DNA of 62,034 nt, filler included, from Deltaproteobacteria bacterium (GTDB taxonomy: Bacteria > JAUYMQ01), in NCBI GenBank assembly GCA_030698575.1. It is 11 parts of 11 records of this genome, joined end to end, with 100 filler letters (N's around TTAATTAATTAA, not from the genome) between each part and the next. Parts side by side here need not be neighbours in the genome. Positions count along the whole stretch, not along the records: positions 45,043 to 48,840 come from JAUYMQ010000598.1; 10 more parts are not named here. One strand, given 5' to 3'. The first letter of the stretch is position 1. Each line of letters begins with the position of its first letter. The position numbers were made by a program, and so were the translations under genes. The notes under the pieces are model-generated. The model was not told the DNA's origin, made no database searches, and was given only the letters and a program-made list of their open reading frames with translations. This document shows, piece by piece, positions 2,542 to 50,616 of the stretch.

Positions 2542-3080
2542 CGCAGAGCCCACCATCCCGCCCCGACAAGGACGAGGGCCCCGCCTGCGATCCATCCCCA
2601 CGGGAGACCCTTCTTCTTGGCGATGACGAAAACTCCTGGCGAGACCTCCTCAGCAAACGATGGAACCTGCTCCATGGGAACAACGATGGTCTCCCCCGTC
2701 TCTTCGTCCATTACCGCCACGTCTCCAGCGCTCGCGGATCCCGTGACCGGTGGAGCAGATGGCGTCAAGACGCTGGAGATCGCCCCCTCCGCATCGAGAG
2801 CGTCGAGGAGATACTCTCCCCACGCTTGCCCGTCACCGAGCGGCAGTTGGTCTAGTTCTGCCTGAAGGGAGGGTAGCAAAGACGAGACGGCACCCGACGC
2901 CCCCTGCTGTGCGAGCACGAGTACCTGGTTGGCCAGGTCGGCGGCCCTGATCGCGACGGCCCGAGACTCGGGCCTCCAGCCTCCATCCCCAGGCCTCTTT
3001 CGCGCGGGAGGGTAGACGATGGCAAGCCTTCCGCTTGCCTCGCGTCTCGTTGAAACGAACCTCGTGCCAGAGAATCTCAC
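2538..3080 (-). CDS. Hypothetical protein with C-terminal membrane anchor
   Basis: GTG start at 3080 after GAGGGAG; ends KKKGLPWGWIAGGALVLVGAGWWALR. Confidence 0.65.
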   Translation of the reverse strand: MRFSGTRFVSTRREASGRLAIVYPPARKRPGDGGWRPESRAVAIRAADLANQVLVLAQQGASGAVSSLLPSLQAELDQLPLGDGQAWGEYLLDALDAEGAISSVLTPSAPPVTGSASAGDVAVMDEETGETIVVPMEQVPSFAEEVSPGVFVIAKKKGLPWGWIAGGALVLVGAGWWALR

Positions 3081-3209
3081 CGCTCCCTCATGGCATCGAC
3101 CGAGCGCCGAATTGTCCGCCCACGGAAGCACCGTTTGCACGGCGCGGGCCCGTGATGGGCTCGCCCCACGCGGTACACGATCCCGACCCCTCCGCAGCAC
3201 CGGCAAGGG

Positions 3210-3521
3210 CTACGCTGGATCGGAGGCACCCTGGACGGCGCGCTTGGCGATCCCGGTCGGGTTTCGTTGCTCGGCTCGCGCATTGCGCCTCGCCTCTCTC
3301 TTCCTGCGCCAGGCGCTCCACGACGTGCCCGCCAAGAATCCAAGGGAGAACCAAAGGATCGCCTCCCGGTTTCCCTTGATGGTGCGGCCGAACCCGTTCA
3401 GCGCCCTGGACAGACCGCTCTCCTGGGCCACGGCGGGAACGGGTTGCGCGGGAGGATCGTACGAAGGCTTACCGTCGACCCCAACGCCCACGGGGACGAA
3501 CGGCTTCGCGTGACCAGCCAT
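3210..3521 (-). CDS. Small hypothetical membrane protein
   Basis: ATG 3521 overlaps the upstream TGA (TGATG); TM AILWFSLGFLAGTSW followed by a basic stretch and RNP. Confidence 0.65.
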   Translation of the reverse strand: MAGHAKPFVPVGVGVDGKPSYDPPAQPVPAVAQESGLSRALNGFGRTIKGNREAILWFSLGFLAGTSWSAWRRKREARRNARAEQRNPTGIAKRAVQGASDPA

Positions 3522-3880
3522 CAGCGACGCCTCCGTGCCCCACGCCATCGGCGCGGGTTCTTGCGGCCCTTGCGGGCCGAAACGATGATGGCGAGGGTCG
3601 CGAGCCCAAACGCAGCCGCCCCGGCGACAGCAACCACCTTGAAGATACGCTCGGTGGTCGCCTGCTCGCCCGCAGCAATCCATCTCCCCTGCTGGGCCTG
3701 GCTCGCTGCGATATTCTGGCCCGCACTGGCCTGAACCTTGACCCCCTTGTAGCCGAGGTATGCTCCCCATCCCTGGAGAGCCAAGCCCCCGATGTTGCTG
3801 ACCGTCTGGCCGATGTTTACGCCAGCGCCGCTGCCAAGGCGAGCCTGCCCAACTCGGGTGGCAAGCATGGCTAGTTCCAT
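3521..3880 (-). CDS. Small Gly/Ala-rich protein with C-terminal TM and RKGRKNP tail
   Basis: 119 aa (alternative start 3868); QARLG near the N-terminus; TM then RKGRKNPRRWRGARRRR. Confidence 0.7.
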   Translation of the reverse strand: MELAMLATRVGQARLGSGAGVNIGQTVSNIGGLALQGWGAYLGYKGVKVQASAGQNIAASQAQQGRWIAAGEQATTERIFKVVAVAGAAAFGLATLAIIVSARKGRKNPRRWRGARRRR

Positions 3881-44938: not shown

Positions 44939-45074
44939 CGTANNNNNNNNNNNNNNNNNNNNNNNNNNNNNNNNNNNNNNNNNNNNTTAATTAATTAANN
45001 NNNNNNNNNNNNNNNNNNNNNNNNNNNNNNNNNNNNNNNNNNAACGGCCCCGCGGGACACCACCAACAGGAGGC

Positions 45075-45896
45075 ATGAGTATGGATTTCAGGCAGATGGC
45101 ACGATCAGCCCCCAACACGACATGGATGTTTATCACCCCGGAGATGGCGGCCTGGTGGCTCACTCTCAATACGCGGAACAGACCGATCAGATCGCGGGCA
45201 GCAATTGCGAAAATGGTTCGTGAGTTGCTCGCAGGGACGTATATCTCCAGCCACCAGGGCATCGCGTTTTACTCCGATGGCGTTCTGGCCGATGGGCAAC
45301 ACCGGCTGACGGCCATCGTCGAGGCCGGCGTGGCCGCCTTCATGCCGGTGACGGTTGGTTTGTCAGAGGCGACGGCGCCCTATATCGACGGGTCGCTGAT
45401 CATCAGGACCGTGGCGGAAGCGGCCACCATCGAGCACGGTCAGCGCGTGTCAAACGCCCATCAGGGGACACTCGCCGGGATGTTTGTCAGGCGTAAGAAG
45501 TGGTGGGATGACCTGACTCGGCAGGAGCGGATTGCTCTGCTCATCCAGCATTCGGAGACGATCATCACGGTGACCGCGTTGCTCGACACCGCTCCCGCAG
45601 GCGTGCGACAGGGGATCGTGGCGGGGGTCCTTGCGCGAGTGCTCTATGTGGTCGGCGGCGGAAAGACGATGCGGATCGGGTCGTTGCTGACCACGGGGGA
45701 GTCGCTCGGCGAAGGCGATCGGGTGCTGGTGCGTCTTCGGAATCTGCTCATCGCTACCCCGGGGTCGCGCATGGAGAAACACAAGCGATACAGCATCACC
45801 GAACGCGGGATTGACGCTTACCTAAAAGGCGAATCTCTCCAGATTATCCGGCCGGCAAAAGATGAATTGTTTCCGCTGCCCGACGAGGAGGCATGA
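45075..45896 (+). CDS. Phage-type protein with DGQHR (ParB/Srx-like) motif
   Basis: NTRNR, QGIAF...LADGQHRL; AGGAGG RBS. Confidence 0.75.
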   Translation: MSMDFRQMARSAPNTTWMFITPEMAAWWLTLNTRNRPIRSRAAIAKMVRELLAGTYISSHQGIAFYSDGVLADGQHRLTAIVEAGVAAFMPVTVGLSEATAPYIDGSLIIRTVAEAATIEHGQRVSNAHQGTLAGMFVRRKKWWDDLTRQERIALLIQHSETIITVTALLDTAPAGVRQGIVAGVLARVLYVVGGGKTMRIGSLLTTGESLGEGDRVLVRLRNLLIATPGSRMEKHKRYSITERGIDAYLKGESLQIIRPAKDELFPLPDEEA

Positions 45897-46024
45897 CCAT
45901 GGACAGAATCGCGGCGATGAAAGAGGCGCTCAAGGTCGAGCGGCAGATCCTCAAGGTCGAGGCGATCCTGGTGCAGTTGCGGTTGCGCCAGGCCGAGCTG
46001 CTGCGGGAGCTGGGCGGGAGCTGA
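45893..46024 (+). CDS. Small hypothetical phage protein (43 aa, helical)
   Basis: Below the ORF-track cutoff; GAGGAGG RBS and stop/start overlaps on both sides (MTMDRIAAMKEALKVERQIL...). Confidence 0.55.
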   Translation: MTMDRIAAMKEALKVERQILKVEAILVQLRLRQAELLRELGGS

Positions 46025-46158
46025 TGCTCTTCCGCTGGGCGAACGAGCGAGAGCTGAACAGCATGCCGACTCCGGAGGCGCTGGAGCTCGAGGGCTGGGT
46101 CCGGGTGCGGCGGCATCCGTTCTGGCCGCTGTCGTGGTTGATGCGGAGGGATGGATGA
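46024..46158 (+). CDS. Small hypothetical phage protein (44 aa)
   Basis: TGATG and ATGA coupling to its neighbours (MLFRWANERE...). Confidence 0.5.
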   Translation: MLFRWANERELNSMPTPEALELEGWVRVRRHPFWPLSWLMRRDG

Positions 46159-48840
46159 GCGAGTACGCGGCATTCCTAGCATCGAAGCGACGAGAGTGGA
46201 CCGGGGCCGGCGTGGCGATCCAGCCTGATACGCTTCCATCTGCGCTCTATCCGTTCCAGCGGGCCCTGACGGCCTGGGCATTGCGAAAGGGACGCGCGGC
46301 GTTGTTCGCCGATACCGGCCTCGGCAAGACCTTCATGCAGGTCGCCTGGGCCGAGCAGATCCCTGGCCGCGTCCTGATTCTCGCGCCGCTCTGCGTGGGA
46401 GCGCAGACCGTCAAGGAGGCCGAGAAACTCGGAATCGTCGTCTCGCCATTCGGATCTGGAGGACGTCTCGAAGTCCTCAACTACGAGATGCTCCACCACG
46501 TCACGCCGTCAGATTACGCGGGTGTGGTGCTGGACGAGTGTTTCATGGCCGGAACGCTGGTCGATACGGCTGACGGCCAGCGGCCAATCGAGAGCATTCG
46601 GCCGGGAGACGGCGTGCGGAACGTGACCGGCCTTGATCGTGTCGCGGCCGTCAAGACGCAGGATCTCTCTCGCCTCATCCGCATGACGCTATCCGACGGG
46701 ACGCAGATTCATTGCTCTGAGCATCATCCTTTCTTTAGCATGCGGGGCCTAGTTGGTGCTAGGATGCTAAAGAGGGGGGATAGACTTTATGGCACCGATG
46801 AAGCCCTGCGAATACTGCGGAGCCCCGCTCGCACCGGAGAAGAATCGTTTCTGCAATCGCTCGTGCTCCGCGAAATGGCGGATGCGCCAGCCGGAGATCC
46901 TGGCTCGGGTCCATTCGCCAGAGGTTGCCGCCAAACGGGGCCTCAAGCGTCGGGCGTGGCTCGCGTCGGGATCGACAAAGGCCAAGGCAGAAATCGCTCG
47001 GATCAGGAAACTCAATCCCTCGTTGCGGCCGGATGTGCGCGCGAAGATCTCGGCTTCACTGCGAGCGATGGGGCACCGGCCTGCCGTCAGAGGCGGAAAC
47101 GGGAAGGGTCCGACACTCCCACAGCGAGTGCTATTCGAGTTGCTCGGAGGCGGCTGGTATATGGAGTACGCGGTCTCGCTCGGCTCCAGGAGGCGTGGCT
47201 ATCCGACGTGCTACAAGGTCGACCTCGGCAACCCGTCGCTCATGCTCGCGGTGGAGGTAGACGGGTTCACGCACGGCAGTCGCCGGGATCAGGATATGAA
47301 GAAGGACACGCGGCTCATGGAGCTTGGGTGGCGCGTGTTGAGGTTCTCGAATCAAGAAGTCCTGAGTTCCGCGCACTTAGTGGTGGACAGGATACGGTCT
47401 CACTCTACGATCTCCAGGTAACGCGGCACCCGTCCTACTCCGTTTCCGGCCTGCTCGTCCACAACTCCTCTATCCTGAAGTCCTTCGACGGGCGCACGCG
47501 CGGGCGCCTCATCGAGATGTTTGCGGCCGTCCCCTATCGGCTGTGCTGCACGGCCACTCCCGCGCCGAATGACATCGCGGAGTTGACGAACCACTGCGAG
47601 TTCCTCGGGATCATGACGCGCGCCGAGATGCTCGCCACATTCTTCGTTCACACCGACGATGCGAACCACGGGCAGGCCGGGTGGCGACTCAAGCGCCACG
47701 CCCGAGAGGCATTCTACCGCTGGCTCGCATCCTGGGGTATGTTCCTGCGCCGCCCGTCTGATCTTGCCTTCTCCGACGAGGGATACGATCTGCCTCCACT
47801 GGAGGTCCACGACGTGATCGTGAAGAGCGGCGCGGCCTATCACGGCGAGTATCTGTTCCCCGGCATGGGGCTCGGCGGGATTCATGGGCGAATGTCGGCC
47901 CGCCGAGGTTCGCTCAAGCCGCGCGTGGACGCGGTCGTGTCGCTCGTGGAAAACACGCCAGGGGCCTGGGTTGTTTGGTGTGGATTGAACGATGAGAGTC
48001 GAGAGGTGGCGGCTAGGATTCCAGGGGCGCAAGAGGTTACTGGGTCCGATTCTTTGGAACGAAAGACTCGCGTGATCGAATGGTTTAGTGGTAAACTATG
48101 CCTATGCCAACACGCGAAGCTAAACTTGAGTACATGCGTAAATGGGCCCGACGCAACCGAGATCGAATCCGAGAGTATGTCCGAGCGAGGTCGAAGCAAA
48201 GGAACGCGCGCCGTCGCCGACGGTATGCTGAAGACACCGAGCATCGGGAAGGGATCAAGGCTGACGTCAGAAGGTGGCAACATGCGAACCCGGCAGCGAG
48301 ACTCCGACAACGGCTCAGGTGCCATGGGCTCACCCTGGAACAATTCTACAAACTTCTCGATTCGCAAGGGGGTAGCTGCGCCATCTGCTTTAAGCGAGCA
48401 GCCCGTCTCCGGGTTGACCACGACCATGAGACCAAGAGAGTTAGAGGTTTACTCTGCAACTCCTGCAATCTCGGGCTGGGAAAGTTCGGAGATAACGCAG
48501 AGCTGCTCGGGCGAGCTGCCCTGTATGTGCGGACATCGAAGCGGGCGGCGCATCCTCATAACTAAGCCAGCGATCTTTGGTCACGGTATGAATTGGCAGC
48601 ATTGTCACCAGATGGCCTTCCTCGGCCTCGGGGATAGTTACGAGACCTACTACCAAGCGATCCGGCGCTGCTGGCGTTACGGGCAGACGCGGCCCGTAGC
48701 CGTCCATGTCGTCGTGTCGGAGGGAGAAACCGAGATCGTGGCGAACGTCAGGAAGAAAGAACAGGAGGCCGGTCGCATGGCCGAAGGACTCATCAAGGCC
48801 GTCCGGGACATGGAACGCGAAGAGGTCGGCATGACGGTGC
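46155..48840 (+). CDS. Phage SNF2-like (SF2) helicase with an intein and a second insertion, 3' partial
   Basis: LYPFQ, ADTGLGKT, VLDE/SS, CTATPAPND, TKPAIFGHGMNWQH, YQAIRRCWRYGQ. Confidence 0.9.
46539..47465 (+). mobile_element. Intein (309 aa) inserted in the helicase Walker B motif (DE|S)
   Basis: Block A CFMAGTLV, block B CSEHHPF, block F YDLQV, terminal HN followed by Ser +1. Confidence 0.92.
46789..47421 (+). CDS. Vsr/DUF559-like endonuclease with N-terminal Zn finger, nested in the +1 frame of the intein
   Basis: CEYC...FCNRSC, RAKIS, YKVDL, LAVEVDGFTH, DMKKD, GWRVLRFSN. Confidence 0.85.
   Translation: MAPMKPCEYCGAPLAPEKNRFCNRSCSAKWRMRQPEILARVHSPEVAAKRGLKRRAWLASGSTKAKAEIARIRKLNPSLRPDVRAKISASLRAMGHRPAVRGGNGKGPTLPQRVLFELLGGGWYMEYAVSLGSRRRGYPTCYKVDLGNPSLMLAVEVDGFTHGSRRDQDMKKDTRLMELGWRVLRFSNQEVLSSAHLVVDRIRSHSTISR
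48098..48565 (+). CDS. Endonuclease VII-family (HNH-like) nuclease nested in the +2 frame of the helicase
   Basis: HGLTLEQFYKLLDSQGGSCAIC, VDHDH, VRGLLCNSCNLGLG. Confidence 0.88.
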   Translation: MPMPTREAKLEYMRKWARRNRDRIREYVRARSKQRNARRRRRYAEDTEHREGIKADVRRWQHANPAARLRQRLRCHGLTLEQFYKLLDSQGGSCAICFKRAARLRVDHDHETKRVRGLLCNSCNLGLGKFGDNAELLGRAALYVRTSKRAAHPHN

Positions 48841-48940: not shown

Positions 48941-49831
48941 ACTCGAGCAGCCGGGCGGCGGCGCGGCGGCGGAGCTTTCCAAGGGCCGTGCGCGGAAGGC
49001 TCTCCACGAAGCGGATCGAACGGGGAGTCTTGTAGCGGGCGAGCAGCCCGCCGCAGTGATCGAGAAGCGCGGCCGCGTCGATCGCCGTTCCGGCCCGCCT
49101 CACCACGAGGGCGACGGGCACCGCCCCCCAGCGATCGTCGGGCATGCCCAGGACGGCGGCGTCGGCCACGTCCGGATGGACGAGGAGCGCGCGTTCGACC
49201 TCCGCGGGATAGACGTTCTCGCCCCCCGAGAGAATCAGATCGCTCTCGCGCGCGAGGACCGTGATCGCCCCGGCCGCGTCCATGCGGCCGCGATCGCCCG
49301 TGTGGAGCCAGCCGTTGCGCAAGGCCCGCGCCGTTTCGCCCGGGCGATTCCAGTAACCCGCAGTCACGACCGCGCCCGCAACGCAGATCTCGCCCTCCTC
49401 ATCCGCATCGGCCATGCCCCCGTCCTCGCGCGCAATTCGGATATTCACGCCGGGGATCGCCGTTCCCACCGAGTCCCAGTGACTTGCTAGCAGACCCGGC
49501 GGGAGGGTCGCCACCTGGGAGGCACACTCCGTAAGGCCGTAGGTCGGCGACACGGGGACGCCGCGCGCGAGGGACGCTTCGACAAGCTCCTCGGGCGCCG
49601 GCCCGCCGCCGAGCAGGACGCAGCGCAGCGACGCGAAAGTGTCGTCGCTGCTCACCGCCGCGTAGAGCCGTTCCAGCATCGTCGCAACCACTGAGAGATG
49701 CGTGACGCGTTGCTCCCGCAAGAGTCGGAGGTAGATCGCCTCGTCGAAGCGATCGGCGACGACGACCGCGCCGCCGAAGAGCACCGCGCGGAGGATGATG
49801 GCCAGCCCGCCCACGTGATAGAGGGGAAGGC
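48941..49831 (-). pseudogene. menE: O-succinylbenzoate-CoA ligase-like adenylate-forming enzyme, lacking its N-terminal part
   Basis: LPLYHVGG, YGLTECASQ, TGDRG, SGGENVYP, LPRTALGK; similarity stops abruptly near 49831. Confidence 0.7.
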
Positions 49832-50616
49832 TTGATGACCCCGGAACCCGTCCAAACCCAGGGCAGCGGCCCGACCGAGCGCGTTCTCTACATCCACACG
49901 GATCACCTCGGCACGGCGCTGCAACTGACCGACGCCAATCAGCAGGGGGTGTGGGAGGGAAAGGCCGAGCCCTTCGGCAAGACCACGGCAACGGCCGTGA
50001 ACACTGTCTACAACCTCCGGTTTCCGGGGCAGTATCATGATTCGAAAACCGGGTTGGACTATAACTGGTTCCGCACTTACGACTCGACGATGGGGAGATA
50101 CCGCGAGACAGACCCAGTTGGGCAGGCCGGGGGGATCAACGTCTATCAATATGCTGCCGCCAACCCGCTGTACTGGCTCGATTTCGATGGAAGGACGGTG
50201 CGCATCAAATCCAGGAGCGTACGGCGTACCGGGCCGTTTGGAGCACACACCTACACAGAGGTCTCAGATGCATCAGGGACCGATTCGTATGGCAGCTATA
50301 AAATAATCGAGACGAAAACGAGGTTCGTAAGAATGATCCTTCGGACTCCGGCCTAAACCGGTTGCCGGTCACGAGTTCGGTAGAAGTTCCGCCGCCGCCG
50401 GGGATGACACAGGAGCAGTGGGACAAGGCAGTGCGAGATGTCGCAGAGAGATGGATGCGATACCCGCGGCAGGTTTACGAAGCAGCGCCGGATGCAGGTC
50501 AACCCGCCGAAGGCAACTGTCACACGACCACGCGTGGAATCTTGGAAGATGCGGGTGGGTCGGGCCCGAGCGAATACAACCCGTTAGGTGCCAACCCCGG
50601 ACTGCACTCCCGATAG
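49832..50616 (+). pseudogene. RHS core C-terminal fragment plus toxin domain, frameshifted near 50300
   Basis: HTDHLGT, NLRFPGQY, YNWFRTYD, NPLYWLDFDG; one extra A in AAAA (50300-50303) would join it to the 50362-50616 frame. Confidence 0.8.

Follow-up and report, generated by a model that had tools for sequence, protein, structure and literature searches.

How can a helicase gene hold, in its own reading frame and apparently with no means of splicing, a segment that encodes a nuclease in another frame? This question is raised by a locus in a 62,034-nucleotide stretch (the window) of the Deltaproteobacteria bacterium assembly GCA_030698575.1, in which short contigs are chained via N spacers. 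The contig concerned (JAUYMQ010000598.1) is 3.8 kb long, occupies positions 45043-48840 and is covered nearly entirely by one open reading frame (ORF) at 46134..48840 on the plus strand, the strand of all features below unless stated otherwise. By homology this gene, which the contig end at 48840 cuts short, is a SNF2-like helicase that in relatives stands alone (about 430 aa) or is fused, often giving about 725 aa, to an N4/N6 DNA methylase. Its homologues (matches of 56-75% identity) carry PF00176, PF00271 and PF01555, and the interrupted helicase domains of the window's own protein fell below the thresholds of the Pfam search. Two foreign segments split the ORF: an intein in helicase motif II and, further downstream, an in-frame insertion at a position that we term site A. 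The latter is probably a mobile homing-endonuclease cassette of the kind that hides its nuclease gene out of frame in the host gene, and we propose that it is furnished with a promoter of its own and with a staple of host-frame cysteines.

Alignment with insert-free homologues places the insertion at 48096..48545 (450 nt), between WFSGK and RRILITKP. In the helicase frame the sequence runs ...RVIEWFSGK LCLCQH ... ELPCMCGH RSG RRILITKP..., and the inserted part reads as 150 residues rich in Ser, Thr, Gly and Arg, with no stop in 150 codons. Since the spacing at site A is fixed at 38-39 aa in insert-free homologues, which follow the pattern F-x-x-G-x-x-R-V-L-V-T-K-P, the insert can be set at 150 codons; its boundary is ambiguous by about four codons owing to an imperfect repeat on its two sides, FSGK on the 5' and RSGR on the 3' side. 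An insert-free allele is represented by the P0003-type sequence around FLEGRARVLVTKP. An earlier note, made from the sequence alone, had described about 150 extra Ser/Thr/Gly-rich residues between EWFSG and RRILITKP in a stop-free frame, beginning with LCLCQH and ending with PCMCGH, and both parts of this description are borne out by the ORF reading and the alignment that it had called for.

The insert is not an assembly artefact. Both junctions are bridged without a single difference by contigs of two public sequencing runs, X1 and X2, one of which may be the source sample; the contig 45043-48840 is present in two groundwater-metagenome runs. Depth in X1 is 14 on the unitig with the insert and about 93-115 on the helicase segment that flanks it. 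These groundwater samples (X1 and X2) contain a related allele in which 630 other letters replace the 525 between 48050 and 48576; the difference of 105 nt is a multiple of three, corresponding to 35 codons, and in X1 this allele has a depth of 37.5 vs 14 for the window's version. A contig of a further run, X4, is 459 nt shorter across the insert, and one of X3 is shorter by exactly 927 nt (1266-339) across the intein. These figures, which are based on contigs with short matching sides, fit a coexistence of occupied, differently occupied and empty alleles.

The second reading of the insert is an endonuclease VII gene. It lies in the +2 frame at 48098..48565 and encodes 155 aa, with the second ATG, at 48104, as its likely start. 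Its Pfam match to PF02945 (Endonuclease_7) has an E-value of 1.2e-19 and reaches 70.4 bits against a curated cutoff of 23.6, and solved structures of Hpy99I (3fc3, 9.8e-07) and T4 endonuclease VII (1e7d, 2.8e-05) are matched as well. The gene retains the motifs CAIC, VDHDH and CNSCNLGLGKF in intact form, in alignment with Hpy99I, T4 endonuclease VII and three relatives; we take the residues of these motifs to have zinc-binding and catalytic roles. By family membership the product is thus a recombination endonuclease VII, as the earlier note had read from the +2 frame. The gene ends with the TAA at 48563-48565, 20 nt beyond the insert and within the host T-K codons of ILITK.

Of the two frames that share this DNA, the conserved one, judging from comparisons with relatives, is that of the nuclease. 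Identities between the window and Gordonia phage Malisha number 63/144 for the nuclease reading (score 241) and 48/145 for that of the host (score 26.5). P0002, a homologous protein with an insert at site A, is compatible with the window nuclease at up to 116/157 positions, including CAIC, VDH.H and RGLLC.SCNLGLGKFGD, and its local compatibility score of 71 compares with 7.3 +/- 1.1 in shuffles.

The insert is sporadic in its host family, as most homologues are empty at site A. Among 240 proteins, 214 could be parsed at this position, and 186 of these are empty and 28 occupied; two of the occupied ones hold just 44-45 extra residues, which leaves no room for a nuclease. The inserts of P0002 and 27 other proteins sit within full-length open helicase-methylase genes. 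With the insert region as query, a word-based search of proteins had returned the window and P0002 only, so that P0002 was at first the sole close relative; this apparent rarity was corrected by a search for longer proteins, which showed helicase-methylases of 880-975 aa to carry site-A inserts frequently. In a set of 78 metagenome loci no insert was present at site A, and one of these loci, L081, bears the same nuclease elsewhere in the gene. When viral and genome contigs were searched with the nuclease protein, 17 loci matched, none of them helicase-flanked, and a junction alignment against viral contigs gave no match.

A tblastn search with the nuclease against GenBank phages found a match under the annotated "DNA helicase" of the Gordonia phages Malisha (42853-44712, L097) and Squiddly (41175-43031, L098). 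The annotation of Malisha gp71 and Squiddly gp64 (619 aa) goes no further than "DNA helicase"; in another frame, each contains a 176-aa ORF for endonuclease VII that has no annotation, and the copies of the two phages are 99.4% identical. Their insert lies at a second position, site B, directly before the WIVWCGLN strand, and so does the same nuclease in L081 (= L096), a 41-kb viral contig. Among the best 80 viral loci with relatives of the nuclease, nine are nested in a longer ORF, eight of them in the SNF2-like helicase family. Site A lies within the RecA-like domain, where a helix passes into a strand through a turn of 4-5 residues and the ends of the insert must come together, and site B lies at the entry to this domain. 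Together with a linker site in gp60 of phage Pacc40, discussed below, the same helicase family has been invaded at three sites, which appears to be new. Outside this family, L268 (1509-2096) holds a relative of endonuclease VII nested out of frame in a long ORF other than this helicase, with TGGTAAACT just upstream of its start.

By the features that define them, the insert is neither an intein nor a group I or group II intron. In the host frame no HINT or intein motif or any other Pfam family was found at E<=0.01, and the insert termini, K|L-C-L-C at the start and C-G-H-R-S-G|R-R at the end, are not those of an intein. Rfam returned no intron family at E<=10 (four weak, irrelevant matches), and the fold of the insert RNA has a z-score of -0.51, 31/100 shuffles folding at least as well. 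AlphaFold gives a pLDDT of about 30 (<50) across model residues 224-352, the interior of the insert, and 88-95 in the flanks. The insert is thus most likely read straight through as a disordered loop and left unspliced. The earlier note's view of a homing element that is tolerated without being spliced out agrees with these results, with the sporadic distribution and with the conservation of the nuclease frame, although read-through without splicing and homing activity are both things that we infer.

Is the open helicase frame then kept by selection? This was assessed by holding the nuclease protein fixed, permuting its synonymous codons or resampling them by host usage, and counting stops in the helicase frame. 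In L081 the frame was stop-free in 0/3000 and 1/3000 shuffles, in L278 in 2/2000 and in L219 in 6/2000. Free-standing relatives of endonuclease VII were open in either overlapping frame in none of 68 cases, with means of 13.5 and 7.3 stops, a contrast that may be inflated by GC differences, as many of the 68 may come from lower-GC phages. Across the family, the open host frame is selected, far beyond chance. The host codons of the window begin 2 nt ahead of the nuclease codons, an offset that is easy to keep open and that is used by most nested copies.

A conserved motif precedes the nuclease start. In the window it is TTTAGTGGTAAACT at 48084..48097, which encodes F-S-G-K-L in the helicase frame and contains an extended -10-like TGnTAAACT followed, after 6 nt, by the ATG at 48104. 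The pattern TGnTAnnnT-N6-[AG]TG is present in 7/12 nested elements with DNA sequence, at the same spacing in the window, L081, Malisha/Squiddly, L220 (= L123), L224, L227 and L222, all of them related to one another; partial versions occur in L230 and L268, and L123 was recovered by a pattern search with the promoter-like motif. At the protein level, a trace of the form [KIR][LH]xx[WC] is seen in 20/29 site-A inserts. Transcription from a sigma-70-type extended -10 element would be expected to start 7 nt downstream, which is the A of the nuclease ATG. This suggests that the motif 6 nt ahead of the nuclease could be an internal promoter giving a leaderless mRNA, and its conservation ahead of a nested nuclease appears to be new. 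Scans of the region for promoters and terminators returned no sites. The 5' cysteine codons described next were also considered as an encoded -35 element (TTG in xTT-TGy), an idea rejected on the grounds that the middle residue is also K, E, D and P.

Both ends of the insert carry cysteines in the host frame. The 5' pair, C-L-C (TGC CTA TGC, 48099..48107), lies two residues past the host GK and overlaps the nuclease-frame ATGCCTATGCC. The 3' pair, C-M-C-G-H (TGT ATG TGC GGA CAT, 48522..48536), overlaps the nuclease codons L-Y-V-R-T, including CTG-TAT-GTG-CGG. Among 29 full-size site-A inserts, 27 have a 5' CxC two or three residues past WFxGx, 26 have a 3' CxC five or six residues ahead of the RR(V/I)L(V/I)SK strand (as CxCGH in 17), and 26 have CxC at both ends. 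The exceptions are P0182, with CxC plus CxxC, and L223 and P0180, which have neither pair; P0180 shows S-T-S in place of C-x-C and has lost its 5' pair too. In the interior of the inserts, 4539 residues include 84 cysteines and not one CxC. The middle residue of the 5' pair may be L, V, I, K, P, D or E, and given this variation conservation at the DNA level is confined to the two Cys codons. For L220, L224 and most members known only as proteins, the pair lies upstream of the promoter-like motif and outside the nuclease ORF. In empty alleles the junction measures just 4-5 residues, and the pairs stand at distances of 2 and 5-6 residues from it. Site A is free of cysteines in insert-free helicases (186 homologues), on which basis a native zinc knuckle of the helicase was rejected.

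Two site-A inserts, P0143 and P0167, are mini versions of 44-45 residues, too short for a nuclease, in which both CxC pairs are retained; P0167 also bears a trace of the promoter motif, FRTKLAEW. By analogy, these nuclease-less forms look like counterparts of mini-inteins. At L220 (2345-2362) and L224 (about 2411-2422) the 5' end of the element repeats the 3' end of the nuclease ORF, which suggests that the cassette may have been excised from tandemly arrayed nuclease genes, the excised piece reaching from the tail of one gene to that of its neighbour. Conserved host-frame cysteine pairs in an insert with a hidden nuclease appear to be new.

In the mechanism that we propose, the cassette would have inserted into a surface turn of the second RecA-like domain of the helicase, between the helix that ends in WFSGK and the RRILITK strand. 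The ribosome would read the helicase through the cassette, adding a disordered loop of about 150 residues, and selection would keep this frame free of stops. Endonuclease VII would be made separately from the +2 frame, most likely through the internal extended -10 promoter TGGTAAACT and a leaderless mRNA that begins at the ATG at 48104. The nuclease would cut insert-free helicase alleles, into which the cassette would then be copied by repair, and the four host-frame cysteines would bind a metal ion, probably zinc, stapling the ends of the loop so that the helicase domain folds. Perhaps, and we offer this as a tentative generalisation, the lineage has evolved a substitute for splicing, in which a CxC...CxCG[H] metal staple serves a disordered loop of 150-250 residues within a folded RecA-like domain, a leaderless promoter serves the nuclease and the mini versions correspond to mini-inteins.

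Several observations weigh against parts of this mechanism. The public sequencing-run search listed no RNA run for the stretch. A two-hexamer promoter scan found no site at the motif, where no -35 element is evident, so that the promoter is argued from the resemblance to an extended -10 and from conservation among related elements. In the window alone the stop-free helicase frame is not beyond chance, as 480/3000 synonymous permutations and 823/3000 host-usage resamplings are open too, which makes it weak evidence by itself. As for the staple, AlphaFold models the 5' pair as an extension of the helix (pLDDT 84), gives the 3' pair a pLDDT of 55 and shows no confident knuckle that resembles a metal site. 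The CxC-x-H zinc clasp of the earlier note finds clear support in the comparison of inserts, through the conservation of its CxC pairs (26/29 full-size, 2/2 mini), with zinc as the putative bound metal. The 3' pair fully overlaps the nuclease residues [L/M]-Y-[L/V]-R, and its conservation could stem from the nuclease frame. The 5' pair looks like a copy of the element's 3' end that has since diverged (11/15 nt in L220, 10/15 in L224), from which it follows that the pairs may have begun as a terminal DNA repeat and been kept afterwards. No such pairs were seen, by eye, in 13 site-B inserts of the same nuclease family, and the 29 site-A inserts are related, so that counts among them are not phylogenetically independent.

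Much of this would also be expected if the CxC pairs had no role in the helicase and were by-products of the DNA, the 3' pair being a shadow of [L/M]-Y-[L/V]-R and the 5' pair a relic of a terminal duplication or, in the window, of the ATGCCTATGCC double start, with the loop tolerated simply because the site is permissive. On this explanation, which we consider unlikely, it makes sense that the 3' pair is exactly NTG-TAY-NTG-CGG in the nuclease frame, that its middle residue is I, T or M in 27/28 cases, as the hidden Tyr codon dictates, and that the repeated 5' unit reads, by eye and in the nuclease register, M-C-L-R-R-stop in L220 (M-Y-L-stop in L224); the duplicate-like 5' unit, the site-B inserts devoid of any pair and the AlphaFold model without a confident clasp are in keeping with it as well. 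A functionless relic should decay, yet 27 of the 29 inserts, with nucleases only about 41-44% identical, retain both 5' cysteines, and the residues between and after them vary freely. The hydrophobic residues beside the Tyr could take many codons, yet NTG is used in 26/29 inserts and CTA in site-B relatives, including L081. Moreover, both inserts without one pair are also without the other (Fisher's exact p ~0.007, computed from the counts), and both mini-inserts keep both pairs although they have no nuclease to encode. As the sole explanation, a pure shadow of the nuclease codons MPMP and LYVR was dropped after this wider comparison. On these grounds it seems fairly likely that selection acts on the host-frame cysteines; that they bind zinc is a more tentative proposal.

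Other explanations concern the fate of the insert rather than the cysteines. It is very improbable that the insert is removed after translation by a novel, non-HINT protein splicing that uses the terminal cysteines and leaves a loop-free mature helicase. Such splicing would require an open host frame just as read-through does, cysteines are conserved near both junctions, and a true intein resides in the same gene, but neither HINT nor any other domain is matched in the host frame, and the interior, with its poor conservation and predicted disorder, offers no fold for catalysis. The junction reads G-H-x-S-G-R-R with a variable x, in place of a conserved terminal Asn or Gln followed by Cys, Ser or Thr, the cysteine is not the first inserted residue, and the site-B inserts are without terminal cysteines. 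Phage group I introns often carry HNH-type ORFs, and with the open frame of the window compatible with chance, a self-splicing intron with a nuclease ORF in which that frame is incidental could be imagined. We regard this as extremely improbable in light of the Rfam and folding results, which answer the earlier note's question of intron splicing in the negative as far as computation goes; the ORF fills the insert and extends 20 nt into the downstream exon, leaving no space for a ribozyme core, and the host frame, for which an intron would have no need, is open far beyond chance across the family. Finally, the short metagenome contig, whose end truncates the gene, and the helicase domains that Pfam does not recognise might be taken as signs of a dead helicase gene, decaying after a recent insertion of the nuclease. 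This is the most improbable of the explanations, as the invariant residues of the family are retained in both flanks of the insert, P0002 and the 27 other proteins bear the insert in full-length open genes, and cultured, plaque-forming Gordonia phages carry the site-B version. The mobile cassette with a hidden nuclease thus continues to be the reading that we prefer.

The same helicase gene has taken up a second invader. An intein of 309 aa (CFMAGT...LLVHN|S; 46539..47465) interrupts motif II (DE|SS) and matches Hint_2, PT-HINT and Intein_splicing; when it is searched as a separate protein, Hint_2 reaches 30.1 bits against a cutoff of 28.4, and PT-HINT and Intein_splicing remain below their cutoffs. 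Nested in its linker is an out-of-frame gene for a DUF559/Vsr-like endonuclease of 210 aa (46789..47421; PF04480, E=9.3e-12), across which the intein frame is stop-free in only 31/3000 and 11/3000 shuffles. A G-rich, Shine-Dalgarno-like stretch, AGAGGGGGG, stands 9 nt ahead of its ATG. Among metagenome helicase loci, L073 bears, at 2794-3767, some 970 nt of inserted sequence in the motif II site that matches the position of the window's intein.

The neighbouring contigs of the window hold ORFs without relation to the site-A finding (49832-50356 and 48941-49991). A protein on a neighbouring contig ends with ...YDSTMGRYRETDPVGQAGGINVYQYAAANP..., which we presume to be like an RHS/YD-repeat core, and on the minus strand of a neighbouring contig lies an acyl/AMP-ligase-like ORF that is truncated by the spacer.

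How does the cassette relate to known systems? Free-standing homing endonucleases are reported to split genes, as with mobE in nrdA of phage Aeh1 and with mobA and the bypass of T4 gene 60. There, too, a nuclease gene is said to reside in an important phage gene without an intron or intein while a device preserves the host function, but this device reportedly yields two polypeptides or involves a ribosomal hop, whereas the window's cassette would be part of a single read-through polypeptide.

In-frame insertions that hide out-of-frame HNH genes have been described as the ShiLan domain, in mycobacteriophage DNA methylases, and as the insert of Pacc40 gp60 (Arsenault, Gosselin and Gogarten 2025, PMC11855218). 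The available text reports no intron or intein signature and proposes leaderless translation, and the outlook section grants that for ShiLan it has not been demonstrated that the insert stays in mRNA and protein. With its sporadic occurrence, stop-free host frame, ORF-filled length and lack of splicing machinery, the site-A insert is, on comparison of these features, of this ShiLan/Pacc40 kind, known since 2025. As far as that text goes, the two share an in-frame insertion, a complete nuclease ORF on the same strand in another frame with its stop at the insert end, and a product predicted to form a loop. They differ in the nuclease, which in ShiLan is an HNH enzyme with flanking zinc fingers and in the window an endonuclease VII (PF02945), in the host domain, which in the window is the RecA-like domain of a helicase, and in the extension of the window's nuclease ORF 20 nt into the host exon. 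The main text of the paper contains the word "promoter" 0 times and presents no conserved promoter-like motif, and its available mentions of zinc or cysteine concern the HNH frame or inteins and not host-frame cysteine pairs (PMC11855218).

Pacc40 gp60 belongs to the same host family as the gene studied here: it is a helicase-methylase 35-38% identical to the helicase parts of the window, although the available text of PMC11855218 calls it a methylase. The precedent in actinobacteriophage methylases that the earlier note gave is correct; the note named none in helicases, and this case of a helicase-domain host had been published under the methylase label. The in-frame insert of gp60, of about 160 codons, hides a 159-aa ORF at the same offset of 2, an intein is present elsewhere in the gene, and the host-frame insert ends are CRCLCH ... 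QCPCD. The insert itself is unrelated to that of the window: it occupies a third site, in a linker at RPSDI|...|GYDLPP, and its nuclease is of another family, with no PF02945 match and no tblastn match to the window nuclease.

Inteins with homing endonucleases in a separate frame form a further parallel (Gosselin et al., bioRxiv 10.1101/2025.01.02.630785; Phillips et al., bioRxiv 10.64898/2026.09.14.751524). According to the available text of these preprints, the host frame has a disordered linker, free of stops, on which a gene of the endonuclease VII-like or LAGLIDADG type is overprinted, and protein splicing removes the host-frame product, whereas the site-A insert contains no domain for splicing. 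To this type belongs the intein of the window (46539-47465), in which a DUF559 gene lies out of frame. In the accessible part of Gosselin et al. a VSR-like endonuclease occurs in antisense only; the DUF559/Vsr-like gene of the window is a sense-strand gene, shifted from the frame by one base.

Homing nucleases have been thought to survive in essential genes by way of an intron, an intein or the splitting of the gene, to which ShiLan added read-through as a fourth way in 2025. The present comparison indicates that this read-through lifestyle is common in one phage helicase-methylase family, with three sites, at least two nuclease families and 40-odd relatives, and that it is found in cultured phages of Gordonia and Mycobacterium. 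For annotation this carries a warning, as helicases that are 150-250 residues longer than their relatives may conceal unannotated nuclease genes, as is the case in Malisha gp71 and Squiddly gp64. Two testable devices are offered for how the lifestyle could work, namely a promoter-like motif 6 nt before the nuclease start and a clamp of host-frame cysteines. If the clamp proves true, it would provide a ready-made "loop staple" for protein engineering, and it would mean that a selfish element has evolved a structural feature for the protein of its host in an overlapping frame.

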